Assembly: GCF_041146345.1 (NCBI RefSeq) | Contig: NW_027191406.1 | Span: forward strand, 992,001-1,056,000 | DNA from: Neodothiora populina | Lineage: Eukaryota | DNA length: 64,000 nt | Reading direction: 5' to 3' | Shown: positions 1,515 to 54,633 of the stretch, in pieces | How the letters are laid out: each line of letters begins with the position of its first letter | Position numbering within the stretch: the stretch's first letter is position 1 | Translations under genes and position numbers: made by a program | Notes under the pieces: model-generated | The model's database searches: none | The model's input: the letters and a program-made list of their open reading frames with translations, nothing else | What the model was told of the DNA's origin: nothing

Positions 1515-4037
1515 TTAAAGTCCACGAGGCTGCGATGGGTTATCCAACGGGACTAATGGAAGGTTGCGCCTCATAGGCACACTGCCTCCAGCTCTCGGAT
1601 TATGCCAGCCTTCTCGCTCGGCCCCCAAGGCTATGAAAGGATCAATGTCAACCTTGTTCTCCCGGTCACCGAAAACAGAAGGATGAATCTGGCCCTGGCG
1701 CGGTGGCATAAGAGTTCGTCGTGCACCATAACGTGGTGACATGAAAGGGATGGCAGTGAGTTCTGCTGTGCTGGGCTCAAGGCGAGGCCATGGTGCCGAT
1801 GTCGACGCCGGGTAACTCCTACGATTGGAGCTCGTCTCTAAGCTGGAAGCTGGACTCAGGACCGGATTGGGTGTCTTTGCAGCTGGTGGTCGTGATGGGC
1901 GCCATCTACTGACATCTGCAGGAGTTTGAGGCTGTCTTGCTGCAGGTAACTCATCATCGTAGATCCTGAAGCTTGGAGTCGTCCCTGGCCGAGCATGCAG
2001 TCCACTTGGGACAATAGGAGATGTTAAAGCACCGCGACGGGGAGGAGTCCTACGCTGAGTGGATTGCATGAGCAACGCCTGCGGGCCACTAGGAAGATCT
2101 TGGTGCGGCGGACTCGAAGAAGGTGGCGCAGGTGGCATTGATGTTGTTGGCAAGGAGTATGTGGGGCCTGATGTCAGAGGCGACATGCGCGCAGGAGACA
2201 ACGGATCGGGAAGTGGGATCGAGCCCACAGAGTAGACAGATGATGCAGACGGAGATCTGCTCGCAAGATGTTGTGACGCGCCAGTCAATCCGAGGGGAGT
2301 CGAAGATGCTATGATAGTCGGCTCACGCGCACGACTGGCTGGTGCGATCAAGGCGGGAAGGGTTTCGAGTCTTCGAGAATCCGAGACGTGTCCGACAGGC
2401 GGCACTTCCTCGTCCTCATCACTACCAACGCCCCCCTCATCGTACGTGGAGTCCTCGGAACAACCAAGTCCGCCACTGAGAAGACGTCCTCGAAATGGCT
2501 GTAGACTATTTGAAGAATGTCGGTCTGTGGATACAGAGGAGAATTGTTGCAGAGCAGCTGTCAACTCATCCAAGGGTGAATGATTGAGATAGTATGCTTG
2601 AGATGGGTATCTACGACGCGCATTTGGAGCGAGTGGAGCATCGGGTGGTACAAGGTCTCTTCGGATCCTGTTGCGGCCTGGACTAGCCGGCTCTGAAATT
2701 CCATTGCTTGATGCCGGTCTGTCCCAAGAAAGCGAGCTGTGTCTGGAATGTATCATTGAAGCACGTAGTGAAGGGTCAAATAAATCCGGGACTGAGTGGC
2801 TTCCAATAGAAGACACTAACCTTGCAGACGAACGACGTGCTCCGATGGGTCTGCTCCTCGCATCAGGAACATCACGCGAATACTGCCGATCTGTTTGATC
2901 GATTGGACTCAGGTCATGAGACAGCATCTCCCGCTCCGACGGTAAAGCTGTAGGTGAGGAGGTTGAGAGGGGAGATGGACATGATCCTGGTATCTTCATG
3001 ACAAGATATCTGTCTATCACTATACCCGACAATGATGCTGGTAGGTCCGATCGACGACCCAAGCTACTAGGTCGCTGCCTCTGGTACTCGCGGTCGCGTT
3101 GGGGTTGTTGATCATCGTATGGCGATCTCTGGGCACGAGTGCGAGGAGCATATGAAGACGCTGGATCAAGCTGACTGTTATCCGGATCTAGCAAAATTGG
3201 ATTACGAGGCCGAAGTGACTGCGCGCCTCGATTGTTGACTGCGTAAGAAGCAGCACGTCGAGTGTCGGGATCATCCGCTGAACCGAATTTGATCCTGGGG
3301 ATGAAAGAAGGTGCCATAGGATCCAATGACGTTGGCAGAGTGAAGGCCTCATCGTGACCCATCATCCTTGGCAGATGAGGCAGTCCGCACTCGTCTGGAA
3401 GGCCTAAGTTACGAGAAGTCGAATCGTAGTAAGAATCGTCAGCATGGCCACCACGAGATCGATAGGGCATCTCGCTGCTTCCATCAAGTCTTGGAGGCAA
3501 ACCGCCATCGCCTTCTAGTCCGCTGTTGTCAGATGTATACAGAGGCAAATCGAAGTAGGAGTGACCCGAGTTTCGGTGAGAAAGTCCCTCAGCCCTTGGG
3601 TTCAGACTCGACCTGGAGCTTGCAGCTGTTTGATCACGATTTGCGTCAACAGCATCGATGGCACGCCTAGCCTCTGCAAGACTCTCTGCAACGGTGAGAC
3701 TGCTAACATCACGATCATGCAATTGAGTATCAGACAAAGTGTCCTCTTCGAGCTCACTCGACGTGTCAGTGAAGGGTGCGAATTGCGGGGAGACGTGAGC
3801 ATGAGATGGATTCACACAAGATATGGCACCACGAATGGGACGTCGAGGGCTAGGGCGGAGGATTCCTTTGTGCCACACAGGAGGCTTTGAGTTTTGTGAG
3901 GGCTGAGATGCTTGCACAGTGAACCAGTCTGTACCTTGGGCGGGTCCAAGCTCTGTCGGTCGTCTTGCTATGCGGGACTTGAGGTCTTGTATATCAGCTG
4001 TCGTGACGCATAGCTTCGAAGGAGTAGGGCGAAACAT
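1515..4037 (-). CDS. Uncharacterised 840-aa S/P/R-rich, largely disordered protein with a Cdc26-like N-terminus
   Basis: Single long ATG-initiated ORF. N-terminus MFRPTPSKLCVTTADIQDL; C-terminal FRIYDDELPAARQPQTP motif. No globular domain recognised. Confidence 0.7.
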   Translation of the reverse strand: MFRPTPSKLCVTTADIQDLKSRIARRPTELGPAQGTDWFTVQASQPSQNSKPPVWHKGILRPSPRRPIRGAISCVNPSHAHVSPQFAPFTDTSSELEEDTLSDTQLHDRDVSSLTVAESLAEARRAIDAVDANRDQTAASSRSSLNPRAEGLSHRNSGHSYFDLPLYTSDNSGLEGDGGLPPRLDGSSEMPYRSRGGHADDSYYDSTSRNLGLPDECGLPHLPRMMGHDEAFTLPTSLDPMAPSFIPRIKFGSADDPDTRRAASYAVNNRGAQSLRPRNPILLDPDNSQLDPASSYAPRTRAQRSPYDDQQPQRDREYQRQRPSSLGRRSDLPASLSGIVIDRYLVMKIPGSCPSPLSTSSPTALPSEREMLSHDLSPIDQTDRQYSRDVPDARSRPIGARRSSARLVSSIGSHSVPDLFDPSLRASMIHSRHSSLSWDRPASSNGISEPASPGRNRIRRDLVPPDAPLAPNARRRYPSQAYYLNHSPLDELTAALQQFSSVSTDRHSSNSLQPFRGRLLSGGLGCSEDSTYDEGGVGSDEDEEVPPVGHVSDSRRLETLPALIAPASRAREPTIIASSTPLGLTGASQHLASRSPSASSVYSVGSIPLPDPLSPARMSPLTSGPTYSLPTTSMPPAPPSSSPPHQDLPSGPQALLMQSTQRRTPPRRGALTSPIVPSGLHARPGTTPSFRIYDDELPAARQPQTPADVSRWRPSRPPAAKTPNPVLSPASSLETSSNRRSYPASTSAPWPRLEPSTAELTAIPFMSPRYGARRTLMPPRQGQIHPSVFGDRENKVDIDPFIALGAEREGWHNPRAGGSVPMRRNLPLVPLDNPSQPRGL

Positions 4038-5890: not shown

Positions 5891-6000
5891 CTGAAGCTTC
5901 GAGGTTTCCCTTTACGATTATTATTGAATGCCGTCTTGGCTTTGTCACTCGCTTTAACAGTTGACACTATCCTCCCCAATCAATCAACCACCCAAAAGCC

Positions 6001-9000
6001 ATGAACGGCGACCTGAGTCTGTCGCAGTCTCTGGGTGGTTTGCGTATTGCCAATCCAGACGACGACGAGGACGACGAGCCCGCTGTTGATGTCGATGTTG
6101 CTGCCGCTGCCGGCGCCTCTTCCTCACAGCCTCCTTCCTCGCAGCAGCAGCCCACCTCCTCCTCCTCGCAGCAGCAGTCACAACAATTACGACTACCACA
6201 ACAACAACAGCAACAGCAACAACAGCAACCAGAACAACCAAAATCACAACAGGTCTTCGAACCCCCGGCCCCTCCTCTCCATACTGCCTCCACGTCACAA
6301 CCACAGCCCCCTGTCAGCTCAACCATCGAAGACAAACGCCCTACCATCTCCTCACAGTCGTCTGGCAGCACGATACGAGACTTGCAGCGGCCTCTGGGCT
6401 TATCGCAGATTTCATCCGACAACGGCAGCAACAGTGGTTCGTACCACAGCTATGTCGAGCAGGGAGTGGGTGCATATGCAACACCTGGTGCAAGCGCAGA
6501 CTCGGCTTCAATCTCGGGTGCGAATGTCATGAATACAGGTGCAGCAGCAGCAGCAAGCAGAGGCACGAGTCCAGGAGCAGCCCACCGAGATGGTCTGCTG
6601 GAATCATACAACCCCCAGAACCCCCAGAAGCCATACCGCGCCCCCTCGGTGTCCTCCGATCATTTCTATGTCCAGTCACGCATGAGTCGACAGCCTTACG
6701 ATACGCAATCCCAGTACTCTCAGAACTCACAATACAGCTCCCGCATGCGCGATCCCAACGACCCGAGGACGTCGGCCCGTCCGCTATCCATCTACAACCA
6801 TGGCAACGCCTCGAGCAGTTCTCAGATCTCCCACGCATCATATCGATACAACAATGACAACATACAACCGCCACAGCCCAACATGGGTCTGTCAAGGAGT
6901 GCCTCGAGGGCCACCGCATCTGCCGCTACTGCCGCCATGGGCGGCCAGATGCCCACCAGGCAGCCTAGTCGGAGCTACAGAGGTGATCCGCAGATGCCGG
7001 CATCGTCAGGGATGATACTGCCCCGAAGGAGCTCGAGGAGGGTGGCCCCTTCATACAACGGCACTGCCGCTCCTCCACAGGGTTCTCCTTACGCCATGGA
7101 AGGTGGTCCATTACCGAGCAGTGAGGAGTGGAAAGACAAGGGGGCCGCTGTGGCCACCCGGCAAGAGATAGACGCTAACGGAAGACCAGTGCAAAAAGTT
7201 ATCAAGAAGGGGGTCAAGGACTTCAATTTCGGCCGCACTCTGGGCGAGGGATCATACAGTACCGTTCTGGCTGCAACCGACAGGCAAACGATGCGGGAGT
7301 ACGCCATTAAAGTGCTGGACAAGAGGCACATTATCAAAGAGAAAAAGGTCAAATACGTTAACATCGAGAAAGATGCGCTGAACCGCCTGACCGAACACCC
7401 TGGTATCGTGAGGCTGTACTACACCTTTCAGGACGAGAGATCTCTCTACTTTGTCTTGGACGTTGCAAATGGAGGAGAGCTTCTGGGCGTTCTTAAGAAG
7501 ATGGGCACTTTCGACGAAGATTGTGCGAGATTCTACTCTGCTCAGATACTCGATTCCATCGCCTACATGCACTCCAAGGGCATCATCCACCGAGACCTCA
7601 AGCCCGAGAATGTGTTGCTCGACGACAACATGCACACAAAGATCACGGATTTCGGAACAGCCAAAATCCTCGACATCAAGCGGACGATGGACGGGGGACC
7701 TGGAAATGACAATGTCGGTGATACCATGGATGGTGCGGACCAGGAACGAGCAAATTCATTCGTCGGCACGGCAGAGTACGTCAGCCCCGAGCTGCTGACT
7801 GACAAGAATGCTTGCAAGGCCAGTGACCTGTGGGCCTTTGGATGCATTGTCTACCAACTTCTGACTGGGCGACCACCTTTCAAGGCGAGCAACGAGTATC
7901 AGACATTTCAGAAAATCGTTGCTCTGGACTACGTTTTCCCTGAAGGCTTCCCTCCTATCGCTAGGGACCTCATCGAGAGGCTCCTGGTACTCGACCCCTC
8001 GCAAAGAATACCAATCGACCACATCATGTCACATCCTTTCTTTGATGGCATCCAGTGGGGCAAGAGTTTATGGAAGCAGAAGGCTCCACGTCTACGAAGC
8101 TACATGCCTCCCCCGTCTGCTCCCATCAGTCTGAACAACAATGGTTCCACTACGAATCTCGGCAACATCCCCGGCATTGCAATGGCACCCGCACCTTCCC
8201 CGTCACATTCGATGCATCCGCAGCAGCAGTCGGTACAGTCTCCACCTCAGCAGCTCTCGCCGCCACAGACTCAGCCAGTCAGACCACAACTACGAGCCAT
8301 CACCGAGGTCGCACCTCCCAGTCAGCTCGACCTGGACTGGTCCTCTGTGCTCACGCGGAATAACGAGCGCATCCTCAAACTCGGAAACATGAACGTCTTG
8401 ACAGCACCAGCCCCACACTCGCCAAATACGAAACCTGGCGGAGATGGTGAACAGAAGGAGACGCCGAACAGGAAGTTCTCCCGGTTCTTTGGTGGAAGCA
8501 CTACGAAGAAGAGGGAGCGGCTGGTCATCATCACGTCTAGCGCGAGACTGATACTCGCGGCAGCTGGCGGAGGCGAGAAAAAGGCCAAGATGGAGATAAA
8601 CCTGCTCATACCTGGAACGTCATGGAAAAGCTACGTGGACGGCCGAGGTTTGACTGTATGGAGTGTTGATACGGTAAGCGTTTTGCTATTCTCTCTCTGG
8701 GCCGACAGCGACTGACACACGGGTTACTAGCGCGACAAGCACCTCTCTTTTGACGATCCACGCTCAACGCCTTCGGACCCTGAAGGTAGCGTATACAGCA
8801 CACAAGAATGGCTTGAAATGATCGAGCGGGCCAAAGAAGTGGCCATGTCTCAATCAGCCGCACATTCCTACTCCAGTGAGTCTGCGTATAACGATTTGGC
8901 ATCGAGCGTTTCCAGCCCGGCCAGTGCTAGCGGGGGCGATGGTGTTGATGGCATGCAACAGCAGGGAGGGCCTAGTGGCTTCGGCGGGAAAGAGGGCAGA

Positions 9001-50805: not shown

Positions 50806-53308
50806 CTAGTATGGCCACTTCCAGCTGACGTAGTCATCGGGGTCCTCGCCGGTTTCGTATCTGTGTGTGGAAAGTCAGCACATGTCTCATCAGGTTTTGG
50901 AAATTTAGATTGGGCGAAACTTACGCATGACTGGCGGAAGCAGTCTTTCTGTCCGCAAAATGCTCACGAGCAGAGGCACCCTTGTTGCCCAAGACGCCCT
51001 TCAAGCTATCAATGGCGAGGATGGCAAGACTGTACCTGTCGGTCTCGTTGCGGATGGCGAGCTCGAGCGGGGTATCGATGTTACCCTTCTCCTTGTAGCC
51101 GCGCACACGCATGAGGTTCTGGCCCTTGCGCTTGTAGGTCAAGCGGTGGATCAACCAGGGGTAACTGTGGAAGTTGAAGACGACGGGCTTGTTGTCGGTG
51201 AAAATTGCTGCGTACTCGTCGTCACGGAGGCCGTGAGGGTGATAGCCGTTTGGCTGGAGCTTGAACAGATCGACGACGTTGACGAAGCGGATCTTGAGAT
51301 CTGGGAGATGCTCACGGAGCAGAGCGGTGGCGGCGAGGGACTCCTGGGTGCTGGTGTCGCCGCAGCATGCCATGACTACGTCGGGCTCCTGACCGGCGTC
51401 GTTTGAAGCCCACTCCCAGATGCCGAGACCCTTACTGCAATGAGCGATGGCCTCTTCCGTGTTCAAGAACTGGAGGTGATTTTGCTTGTCGGCGACGATC
51501 ACGTTGACATAGTTGACGGAGCGGAAGCAGTGGTCCATGCAGCTCAATAGACAATTGGCATCGGGAGGCAGGTAGATGCGAGTAACTTCGGGGGATTTGT
51601 TACAGATGACATCCAAGAAGCCGGGATCTTGGTGAGTGAAACCGTTGTGATCTTGTCTCCAGACAGTGGATGTGAGCAGAATGTTGAGCGAGGCAACCTT
51701 TTCTCTCCACGAGACCTCTGCACACTTCTCGAGCCACTTGCAGTGCTGGTTAACCATGGAGTCGATGATGTGAATGAATGGCTCGTAACTGTTGAGAAGA
51801 CCATGGCGTCCACTCAGAGTGTAGCCCTCCAGCCATCCCTCGCAGGTGTGCTCACTGAGAATTTCCATGACTCTTCCTGTGGTTGCCAATTCGCCACCGT
51901 CACTATCGTAGTTGAGCAGCTCTCCCATCCATTGCTTTTTGGATACCTCGTATACAGCATCAAGCTTGTTGGACTGAGTCTCGTCAGGACCGAAGAGACG
52001 GAAAGTCTCCATGTTGTTGCGGACCACTTCAGCTAAGAACTTGGCGAAGATGTTCATGCTGGGGGCTGATGAGACACCCGCTTTACGTAGATCGAAGCCG
52101 AATTTTCTGAAGTCGGGCATTCTCAGAGGTCGATACAGTACGCCTCCGTTGGCGACAGGGTTGGCGCTCATGCGGCGCTTACCCTCGGGTGCAATGGCCC
52201 TCAATGCTGGGATCAATTTGCCATCCTTGAACAACTCTTCGGGCTTGTAACTTCTCATCCACTTCTCGAGGAGGCCTAGTTGCTTCTCGTCCTTCAAGAC
52301 TTGAGTCAATGGGATTTGATGGGCGCGCCAGTAGCCCTCGAGCTTGTGTCCATCTACTTCTTTCGGGGCAGTCCAACCCTTGGGACTGCGAAGGACGATC
52401 ATCGGCCACATCGGTCGAGTCGCCTTACCCGAGTCTCGAGCTTCCTTCTGGTACTTCTTGATCTTGGTCACGCAAGTCTCCATGGTAGCAGCCATGGCCT
52501 GGTGCATTGTGGGCAAGTCACTACCCTCAACAAAGTGAGGCTCCCAGCCATAACCCCAGAAGAGCGCACGGAGTTCTTCATGGCTAATTCTGGCAAGGAC
52601 GGTGGGGTTGTTGATCTTGTAACCATTGAGGTGGAGCACGGGCAAAACGGCACCATCCTGAATGGGATTGAGGAATTTGGTGCTGTGCCAGGAAGTGGCA
52701 AGCGGTCCGGTCTCACTCTCGCCATCTCCAACCATAGTCAAGGCGATGAGCTCTGGGTTATCGAAGACGGCACCGAATGCATGAGAGATAGAATAACCGA
52801 GCTCACCTCCCTCGTGTATACTGCCGGGTGTTTCGGGGGTAGCATGGGAGCCAATGCCGCCAGGGAATGAGAATTGCTTGAAGAACTTCTGCAAGCCTTC
52901 TACAGTTTCTGATTTGTCCGGGTAAACCTCAGAGTAAACACCCTCGAGGTATGAGTTGGAGATGACGGCAGGAGCACCGTGTCCGGGACCAGAGACGAAG
53001 AAAGCATCAAGGTCATACTTCTTGATGAGTCGATTCATATGAATCCATGTGAAGGATTGTCCTGCATCCGAACCCCAATGTCCCAGTAGTCGAGGCTTGA
53101 TGTGCTCGACCTTAAGTGGTTCTTCTAATAACGGGTTGTTCTTCAGATAGAGCATACCCAGACAAAGGTACATGCTAGCATTGAAGTATCTGTTGATTAG
53201 ATCTAGCTCTTCCTTGGAAAGAGGTTGTTCCTTTATGGTGGACCTTGCCTCTCCCCATGGAGAGAGGTCTCCGACCTCGAGGTCTTTCTCTGCAACTCCA
53301 GCCATCAT
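50806..53308 (-). CDS. xfp: Xylulose-5-phosphate/fructose-6-phosphate phosphoketolase
   Basis: LLGHWG, GPGHG, EGGELGY, GDGESETG (TPP-binding), QDHNGFTHQDPG. Intron 50861-50924, then YETGEDPDDYVSWKWPY*. Confidence 0.97.
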
Positions 53309-54633
53309 GACAATGCTGAGGTTGGATTAGTATAGCTATGGGTGTGTGCTAGGAGGGAAGCTGTCCTGGCAGGGAACGATGCAGCTCTCACTCTTTTAAA
53401 GAGCTCAACGCTCCAGCCAGCAACGGGACGACCGGCCTACGCATTTCAAATAAACGTTAATGGATAGCAAGTACCCACCAAAGTGGTGGAACACACGAAG
53501 GGGTGCTACATAATGATGTCATTCACGCCATTAGGAGATTGAATAGTTCCGTCCTCCGACATTAATTGTCTGTGCCATGTCCGGCTCGCTCGGAAGTATA
53601 GAGTATTTACAGTCACTTCGCCTGTCATCTCTTCACGGGCTAAGAGGTATCAAAAGCTGTAAGGTTCATCGCCTCAGCATGATTGTAATTCGATGCAGCA
53701 GCTTCGCAGGTTGCAGGACATGATCACCTTGTTGCGCAGCGATCAAGGTAAGCTGCAGGATCACAAAGCTTATGCTTCAGAGCTTGGGCCATGTCCCTTG
53801 AAGTAAGGTAAGGTAGGTGTGCAACCCCGCGGTCAGACAAGAGCTGCCCCTCCTTCTCCCGAGTTGACCGAAGCAATGAAGGATGCCTTACGTACGAGTA
53901 CTTACCTTATGATACAGCAACCACGTGTCCCTTAGGACGAGCTTGCGTCCTCTACCATCTAAGCGGATGTTTTGGCGACGTAACAGGTGGATAATTCGGC
54001 CTCGGCCGATTGCTGTTGCCTTTCCTATGCGCACCTAGTGCCAGTATGATAACGCCTCGGGCCCTGCATGAACTAATCCGCTCACACCACCTCAACGACC
54101 TTGATTTTCCTGATCTCCTCACGCACTGTATGCTACCATGTATGCGCTTGTATACCTAGGCTCGTTCGGCATCTGTCCTCGCATCCGACTTGCTGGTTCA
54201 GGGATGTGCACATGATCGACGTTGGCAGCAGTTGTTGCCGCATACCTTACCTTGCTTCGCACCCGTATAACCCTTTCGCAACGTTTGAAGTTTATACAGT
54301 GCTTCTATGACTACTCTAGATCTTGAATTCTCTCGACCACTAACATGACCTTCTTCTGATGTGACTACTTCCATTGGGGTCGGCAGCTGCATCTCAATGG
54401 AAAAGAAAATTAGGTTATCTCACGCTGACCAAGTCCTCTAGGCCCTCGCCTATCAGAGCTTGATGATGCTACAACACTTGAAGAAAGATTTGTATCGTTG
54501 TACAGCCAAGAGCATGCATGAGGGGCATCCAATGATACTCAAGGATGTCTTCTTGACGACGATGAGCTTCAAAATGAAGCCTCGACAGCTTCACTGTAGC
54601 TCTCATTACGCAGTTCTGTAATACTCTTGCATC

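Follow-up and report, generated by a model that had tools for sequence, protein, structure and literature searches.

Cdc26, also known as APC12, is a small accessory subunit of the APC/C (anaphase-promoting complex, or cyclosome), and it has been regarded as a tiny peptide of chaperone-like character with a tail that is neither conserved nor needed. Here we describe a gene of the ascomycete Neodothiora populina that is probably this fungus's own long form of Cdc26. The gene lies in a stretch of 64,000 nucleotides (NCBI RefSeq assembly GCF_041146345.1, contig NW_027191406.1, positions 992,001 to 1,056,000 of the forward strand), which we call the window throughout. An earlier note on the same DNA, made from the sequence alone, had inferred a separate giant regulator docking on the APC/C; a Cdc26 that belongs to the lineage itself and carries a long tail is the simpler and most economical reading.

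In human CDC26, residues 1-12 form a rod and residues 13-25 a helix, T7 and L9 making the key contacts (PMC4344199, in the section available); an extended N-terminal stretch and a short helix after it are described in the available text of PMC5717348 as well. The accessible part of PMC11473103 likewise has the first 13 residues of CDC26 entering the groove of APC6, followed by a helix and a disordered C-terminus. According to the available portion of PMC1847674, the N-terminal pattern is all that Cdc26 orthologues have in common, their C-termini being unconserved, and a longer orthologue from C. elegans rescues yeast. Because the N-terminal pattern alone is common to the family and the longer nematode protein complements yeast, length is no bar to being a Cdc26.

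The gene of the window and its N-terminal anchor are placed as follows.

Window 1515..4037, minus strand: the whole open reading frame (ORF), encoding protein P0001 of 840 residues plus stop, disordered and belonging to the family of long Cdc26-like proteins.
Window 3957..4037, minus strand: Cdc26/APC12-type N-terminal anchor, residues 1-27, delimited from alignments, the relatives' matches to the Pfam family PF10471, PDB chains, AlphaFold2 and hhalign.

The ORF is uninterrupted over its 840 codons and stop, and the sequences on which the earlier note had built its case are all present: the first 19 residues, FRIYDD (residues 690-695), DREN (791-794) and RRNLPLVPLDN (823-833). The note had also described the protein as otherwise disordered, in agreement with a Pfam scan of the full 840-residue protein, which found no domain above threshold, and with an ESM Atlas model of mean predicted local distance difference test (pLDDT) 0.41 and predicted template modelling score (pTM) 0.13. 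The many SP/TP sites it remarked on represent no enrichment, since 21 are observed and 21.5 are expected from shuffles. It had further raised the doubt that an upstream exon might precede the MFRP start. An in-frame stop sits 7 codons upstream of the ATG, which is thus the first in-frame ATG. An RNA run over the locus gave two short DNA-like contigs (266 and 245 bases) that fall outside most of the gene and are without joints.

The protein is not the orphan it was taken for. A word-indexed protein search returned 3 proteins including the query, and exhaustive phmmer returned 7 including the query: four full-length orthologues of 795-849 residues (P0002-P0005), a 255-residue fragment (P0006) and a distant relative of 600 residues (P0007). 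A search with the N-terminal profile among the longer of 5.8 billion proteins recovered solely the family itself, and from it came a further orthologue, P0008, so that five to six orthologues of 795-849 residues are full-length. In addition, metagenome contigs scanned with the two most conserved peptides gave 507 pattern-matching stretches and, among them, 7 confirmed loci of more distant relatives, comprising six complete ORFs of 463-767 residues (P0009-P0014) and one partial ORF; P0009 is L001 3714-5474, P0010 is L003 2299-4065, and the ORF of L002 runs from 1 to 687. One orthologue is annotated, as a hypothetical protein of Delphinella strobiligena, and the ESM Atlas clusters nearest to the protein consist of hypothetical proteins from Ascomycota, 892, 885 and 588 residues long. 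An architecture that the earlier note could match to no description is common to a widespread Ascomycota family, and in an Atlas cluster of about 500 residues 12% of the 137 members already have PF10471 assigned, a lead only, as the score of that cluster, 0.85, falls below the 0.9 bar.

Aligned, the relatives show variable disordered stretches broken by sharply conserved islands. The columns invariant in the 10-sequence alignment A4 are M1, R3, D15, R432, S435, S487, S521, Y693, D695, P698, A699, Q702-D708 and P755.

It is the N-terminus that points to Cdc26, as the earlier note had proposed. The window protein has Met1, R3, P6, S7, hydrophobic residues at 9 and 11, D15 and I16; an amphipathic helix follows that ends in RP, and positions 2 and 4 of the Cdc26-type pattern are taken by F and P. 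The Cdc26-like sequence is conserved and anchored at Met1: all 12 complete sequences with a known start (the window protein, P0002-5, P0008 and the six metagenome ORFs) open with M-[LIF]-R-x-x-[PA]-[ST]-x-hydrophobic-x-hydrophobic...D-hydrophobic. The locus starts read MLRC.P[TS]RIRIT in L001 and L003, MLRNRPSRVPL in L004 and MIRLP[AP]T.I.[IL]S in L005-7, and the methionine of the motif is the first in-frame ATG after an upstream stop in the window and in 6/6 complete loci.

Three comparisons with known Cdc26 proteins agree with this pattern. Firstly, PF10471 (ANAPC_CDC26) matches 5 of 11 N-terminal fragments, each time with residue 1 on profile position 1, and is the best or sole family for each of the five (E-values 0.077 for P0005, 0.011 for L001, 0.0018 for L005, 0.025 for L006 and 0.0011 for L007), whereas none of 42 Met-started 70-residue control fragments, taken from the window's other ORFs, matches it at E <= 10. 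Secondly, an 11-sequence N-terminal profile run with hmmsearch against 177,635 distinct PDB sequences gave 13 matches at E <= 10, and these include in register all three solved Cdc26 orthologues: human (3hym_A, 1-18 on 1-18), S. pombe Hcn1 (2xpi_B, 1-16 on 2-17) and S. cerevisiae (8a3t_G, 1-23 on 1-23). By a rough estimate, it is extremely unlikely that chance would place 3 of 13 matches on one tiny family among so many sequences. Thirdly, AlphaFold2 run on the 11-sequence N-terminal alignment predicts coil over residues 1-12 and helix over 13-25, with pLDDT of about 88 at residues 11-20, which matches the secondary structure of human CDC26, and the family has S or T at position 7 and I, L or V at position 9.

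Several observations weigh on the other side. The PF10471 scores, 14.3-20.3 bits with L007 the best, all stay below the Pfam gathering cut-off of 24.5, an operational criterion and not a biological one, and they are not independent trials because the five matching sequences are related to each other. The window protein itself gives no match to PF10471, whether as its 60-residue or 66-residue N-terminus or at full length, and scoring its residues 1-30 against that profile, as the earlier note had proposed, finds nothing; the N-termini of P0002-4, L003 and L004 are equally without a match. None of the PDB E-values for Cdc26 (0.92 for human, 1.1 for S. pombe, 9.8 for S. cerevisiae) is significant alone, and these chains stand 4th, 6th and 13th in a list that has chance matches to a repressor (E 0.16) and to an aminopeptidase (E 0.25), neither of them related, ahead of all three. 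Single-sequence PDB searches with the N-termini of the window protein and of P0005 returned 0 matches each, and a 5-sequence, 66-column N-terminal profile found one unrelated PDB match and no Cdc26 chain. The window protein is also 7-10 times the length of known Cdc26 proteins, and P0007, with its 600 residues, has no Cdc26-like N-terminal motif. P0007 does keep the islands of the body (LDPAAPAFVP, NSPLDELT, VNVYDD..QPQTPADV and a C-terminal GRFERFL), and represents either a gene model cut short or a form that naturally has no anchor. Separately, an ESM Atlas search with residues 1-48 of P0005 gave no usable match.

One could argue from this that the likeness to Cdc26 is convergent or accidental, and that the family is an unrelated disordered scaffold, for instance a kinase-regulated adaptor with no APC/C link. 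Matches that all lie below curated or conventional significance, a window protein without PF10471 and a relative with the body and no anchor fit such a view, as do two islands of the tail.

Window 3270..3329, minus strand: island SLDPMAPSFIPRIKFGSADD, residues 237-256, PAM2-like and RVxF-like by eye.
Window 2724..2753, minus strand: IHSRHSSLSW, residues 429-438, an R-x-x-S site with His at -5 (HSRHSS by regular expression).

In the second, R432 and S435 are invariant across all subgroups, and the site is a likely phosphosite for a basophilic kinase, with a likeness to sites of NDR/LATS type. The first, listed as SLDPLAPSFVPRVRFGSAD among the conserved islands of the relatives' alignments, has a weak match to PAM2 (PF07145) in the window protein. 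We did not retain the PAM2 reading: the match reaches 12.3 bits (E 0.15) against a cut-off of 20 in the window protein only, the strict PAM2 regular expression fits 0/13 sequences, with Asp at motif position 2 where it wants Asn or Ser, and LDP.AP.F.P occurs in 7/13 sequences, all of one subgroup. The RVxF reading, made by eye, is not established. A scaffold unconnected to the APC/C would moreover leave unexplained why five relatives, and none of the controls, match PF10471 and no other family, each in register and starting at residue 1, why every solved Cdc26 orthologue is among the 13 PDB matches, and why the predicted boundary between coil and helix falls at residues 12/13. We consider it improbable.

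The window gene can be tied to the groups that do match PF10471 through its neighbour as well as its sequence.

Window 6001..8715, plus strand: PDK1-type protein kinase, a divergent neighbour outside the protein, with a Pfam Pkinase domain and PDK1 as nearest solved structures.

This kinase stands head-to-head upstream of the long Cdc26-like gene in the window and in four of the six complete loci, L001 (149-2779, minus), L003 (3-1349, minus), L005 (418-2733, minus) and L006 (2-1513, minus), with a spacer of about 0.9-2 kb between the two genes; L004 and L007 have other neighbours in its place. The neighbouring kinase is 64% identical to that of the window in L001 and 60% in L005, and its retention across deeply diverged relatives suggests that the two genes share a bidirectional promoter region. 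When the profile of the close orthologues is set against that of L005-7, hhalign aligns the island at residues 686-713 with E 4.4e-8 and probability 94.9%, and between the N-terminal profiles it aligns residues 1-19 with residues 1-19 at E 1.6e-4 and a modest probability of 50%. Given the kinase synteny and both hhalign matches, the window gene is orthologous to the divergent groups that match PF10471. Two observations concern the kinase region itself: the kinase ORF has long Gln/Ser/Pro runs in its 5' part (window 6001-6300, plus strand), and opposite it lies a Cys/Glu-rich ORF of 126 residues (window 5967-6347, minus strand), probably an artefact mirroring the low complexity.

We favor a long-tailed Cdc26, and its mode of action can be outlined from sequence and predicted secondary structure. 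Residues 1-12, from the initiator methionine, would lie extended in the tetratricopeptide repeat (TPR) groove of Cdc16/APC6, and residues 13-25 would form a short helix packing against it, much as the human and yeast complexes have it. The remaining 800 or so residues would project from the TPR lobe as a disordered tail bearing conserved short motifs. The strongest of these, an island with the shape of an ABBA motif and an invariant Thr-Pro after it, could serve as a docking or phospho-regulated site and so add a function specific to the lineage. On this reading the protein would bind APC6 and would be the sole Cdc26 of its genome. On the latter point there is weak evidence from short proteins: among those of 35-119 residues in the 5.8 billion, 36 candidates shared words with the N-terminal profile and none scored.

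The tail island is the most conserved of the family.

Window 1899..1982, minus strand: island of residues 686-713, [FLVI]-x-[IV]-Y-[DEN]-D-x-x-P-A-x-x-Q-P-Q-T-P-A-D-[VL].

It holds the ABBA-shaped FRIYDD (residues 690-695, window 1970-1953) and an invariant TP, and in the orthologues it takes the form TPRFRIYDD.LPA..QPQTPAD. The Y, the D, PA and QPQTPAD do not vary across two alignments (8/8 and 10/10 sequences), and all the complete metagenome ORFs carry [FLVI]-x-[IV]-Y-[DN]-D-x-x-P-A-x-x-QPQTPADL. Measured against the ABBA consensus Fx[ILV][FY]x[DE] (as given in the available text of PMC5717348), the hexamer fits in relaxed form at the homologous position in 13/13 sequences, with 0.2-0.4 such matches expected by chance per protein. 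The ABBA claim of the earlier note thus stands as to a conserved ABBA-shaped hexamer at a homologous position; the exact fit it had stressed holds in 8/13 sequences, the other 5 beginning with L, V or I.

It is here that the case for a separate regulator has to be weighed. In that scheme a giant Cdc26-like protein would act beside a canonical Cdc26, holding APC6 with its N-terminal peptide and Cdh1 or Cdc20 with the ABBA-shaped island, either as a pseudosubstrate on a tether or as a clamp for the coactivator. The N-terminal evidence from PF10471, PDB and AlphaFold2 speaks for this scheme too, and so does the hexamer, with its strict or relaxed fit at a constant position in the best conserved island of the family. 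The remaining motifs invoked by the earlier note lie at the end of the protein.

Window 1656..1667, minus strand: DREN, residues 791-794, with E793 and N794 conserved and E-N invariant in alignments A2 and A9.
Window 1539..1571, minus strand: RRNLPLVPLDN, residues 823-833, D-box-like, unconserved and judged a chance occurrence.

What is kept, in the longer subgroups only, is E-N preceded at a distance of two positions by Asp or Glu, a further point for the separate regulator; its orthologue form is D-Q-E-N-E, and in the L005-7 group the island has no counterpart at this position. As a KEN box it does not hold up, as KEN occurs in 0/13 sequences and the position reads REN, QEN, NEN, AEN or IEN, never K. 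The D box (destruction box) is defined as RxxLxx[LIVM], or more fully as RxxLx[D/E]OxN[N/S], in the part of PMC5717348 available. The D-box-like C-terminus belongs to the window protein only: one R..L..[LIVM] match, at residue 823, compares with 1.3 expected by chance, no relative has a homologous match, and R..L....N occurs in 0/13 sequences.

Two observations on the island also weigh against the scheme. Its profile found one chance match in PDB, with no ABBA-bearing chain and no Acm1, and no match in Pfam. The conserved block runs 13 residues past the hexamer (PA..QPQTPAD), an extension that no ABBA motif quoted in the available section of PMC5717348 has. Because conservation extends beyond the hexamer and neither PDB nor Pfam offers a match, the island may bind something else. 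Binding to a coactivator is one possibility; another subunit of the APC/C could be the partner instead, or the Thr-Pro could be a site for a cyclin-dependent kinase (CDK) or a phospho-reader. All in all, a separate regulator next to a canonical Cdc26 seems to us rather unlikely. Within the long-tailed Cdc26 that we prefer, it is tempting to speculate that the tail island docks the WD40 domain of a coactivator in cis, perhaps switched by CDK phosphorylation, making it a built-in tether or pseudosubstrate on the ligase and not a soluble inhibitor; we regard this as unlikely.

The tail has further conserved islands.

Window 3852..3929, minus strand: subgroup-specific extension of residues 37-62 (DWF...SQN..P..W/YHKG.L), from alignment A3.
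Window 2550..2591, minus strand: island YLNHSPLDELTAAL, residues 483-496, from alignments A4 and A9.
Window 2451..2501, minus strand: island PF.GRLLSG.L..SED, residues 513-529, from the alignments.
Window 2148..2189, minus strand: island RMSPLTSGPTYSLP, residues 617-630, in close orthologues only.
Window 1734..1778, minus strand: island EPSTAELTAIPFMSP, residues 754-768, from alignments including A9.

In the extension next to the anchor, D37, W38, F39, Q48, N49, P52, G58 and L60 are invariant in A3, and AlphaFold2 predicts a short helix at 38-43; the L001/L003 and L005-7 groups do not have it. At residues 483-496, S487 is invariant in A4, and Y483, L484, S487-D490, L492 and L496 in A9, with YLNHSPLDEL listed among the islands. 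The relatives' alignments also give RPF.GRLLSGSLFYSED, RMSP.TSGPTYS and EPSTAELTAIPFLSP as conserved islands.

The orthologues have one more island, at their C-terminus, LD.TPP.EGRFERMMR, that the window protein is without. An FER..R ending was sought downstream of the window ORF in any frame and not found, and the window C-terminus is shorter than those of the orthologues. Among the relatives, the C-termini of P0009, P0010, the L002 ORF, P0002-5 and P0008 read ...GRFER[YF]LR, three of them with Leu-Arg as their very last residues, or else ...ER[ML][ML]R followed by a single further residue. Such endings may resemble the IR, MR and LR tails that bind TPR subunits of the APC/C.

The window is otherwise an ordinary piece of fungal chromosome, its genes including, besides the PDK1-type kinase, those for DnaJ, Rad4, an eEF1A-like GTPase, phosphoketolase and an OPT transporter. 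The phosphoketolase is complete (window 50921-53326, minus strand), with the N-terminal, middle and C-terminal XFP domains, the N-terminal one at E 2.5e-168.

Throughout a lineage of fungi, Cdc26 appears to be 5-10 times longer than usual, with an island of 20 residues that is better conserved than the APC6 anchor itself. A long tail with such an island implies an unrecognised function attached to the TPR lobe of the APC/C in filamentous fungi. This identification also offers a name for a set of hypothetical proteins, among them the Delphinella strobiligena entry and the Atlas clusters. Our searches of the open-access literature turned up no account of a long Cdc26 in fungi; fungal Cdc26 is mentioned there only in passing, in a 2007 figure legend with an Aspergillus nidulans expressed sequence tag and as a Magnaporthe Cdc26 subunit in an expression list. 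The N-terminal module is of a known kind; for a long tail whose island surpasses the anchor in conservation, the open-access literature found gives no description.

Compared with the systems already described, the family resembles the Acm1-type pseudosubstrate inhibitors, which combine ABBA, KEN and D-box motifs, in being disordered and in having a hexamer of ABBA shape (by the consensus in the available text of PMC5717348). Unlike them, it has no KEN and no conserved D box, and it has a Cdc26-type anchor that is not described for Acm1. The C. elegans Cdc26 (B0511.9) is likewise longer than usual, is recognisable solely by its N-terminal pattern and is functional in yeast; in contrast to the fungal tail, no conserved motif is reported for its tail in the available portion of PMC1847674, and the fungal proteins are still much longer. 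From Cdc26/APC12 as known in human (85 residues), S. pombe (Hcn1) and S. cerevisiae (124 residues), the family differs in its length, 463-849 residues instead of about 80-125, in the strongly conserved islands of a tail whose counterparts are described as unconserved in that same portion of PMC1847674, in the Pro at position 4 of the window subgroup and in missing the Pfam cut-off. Set against these differences, the Met1 motif runs in register with that of the PF10471 proteins, residues 1-12 are predicted to be extended and 13-25 helical, as in the accessible parts of PMC4344199 and PMC11473103, and the rest of the chain is disordered.

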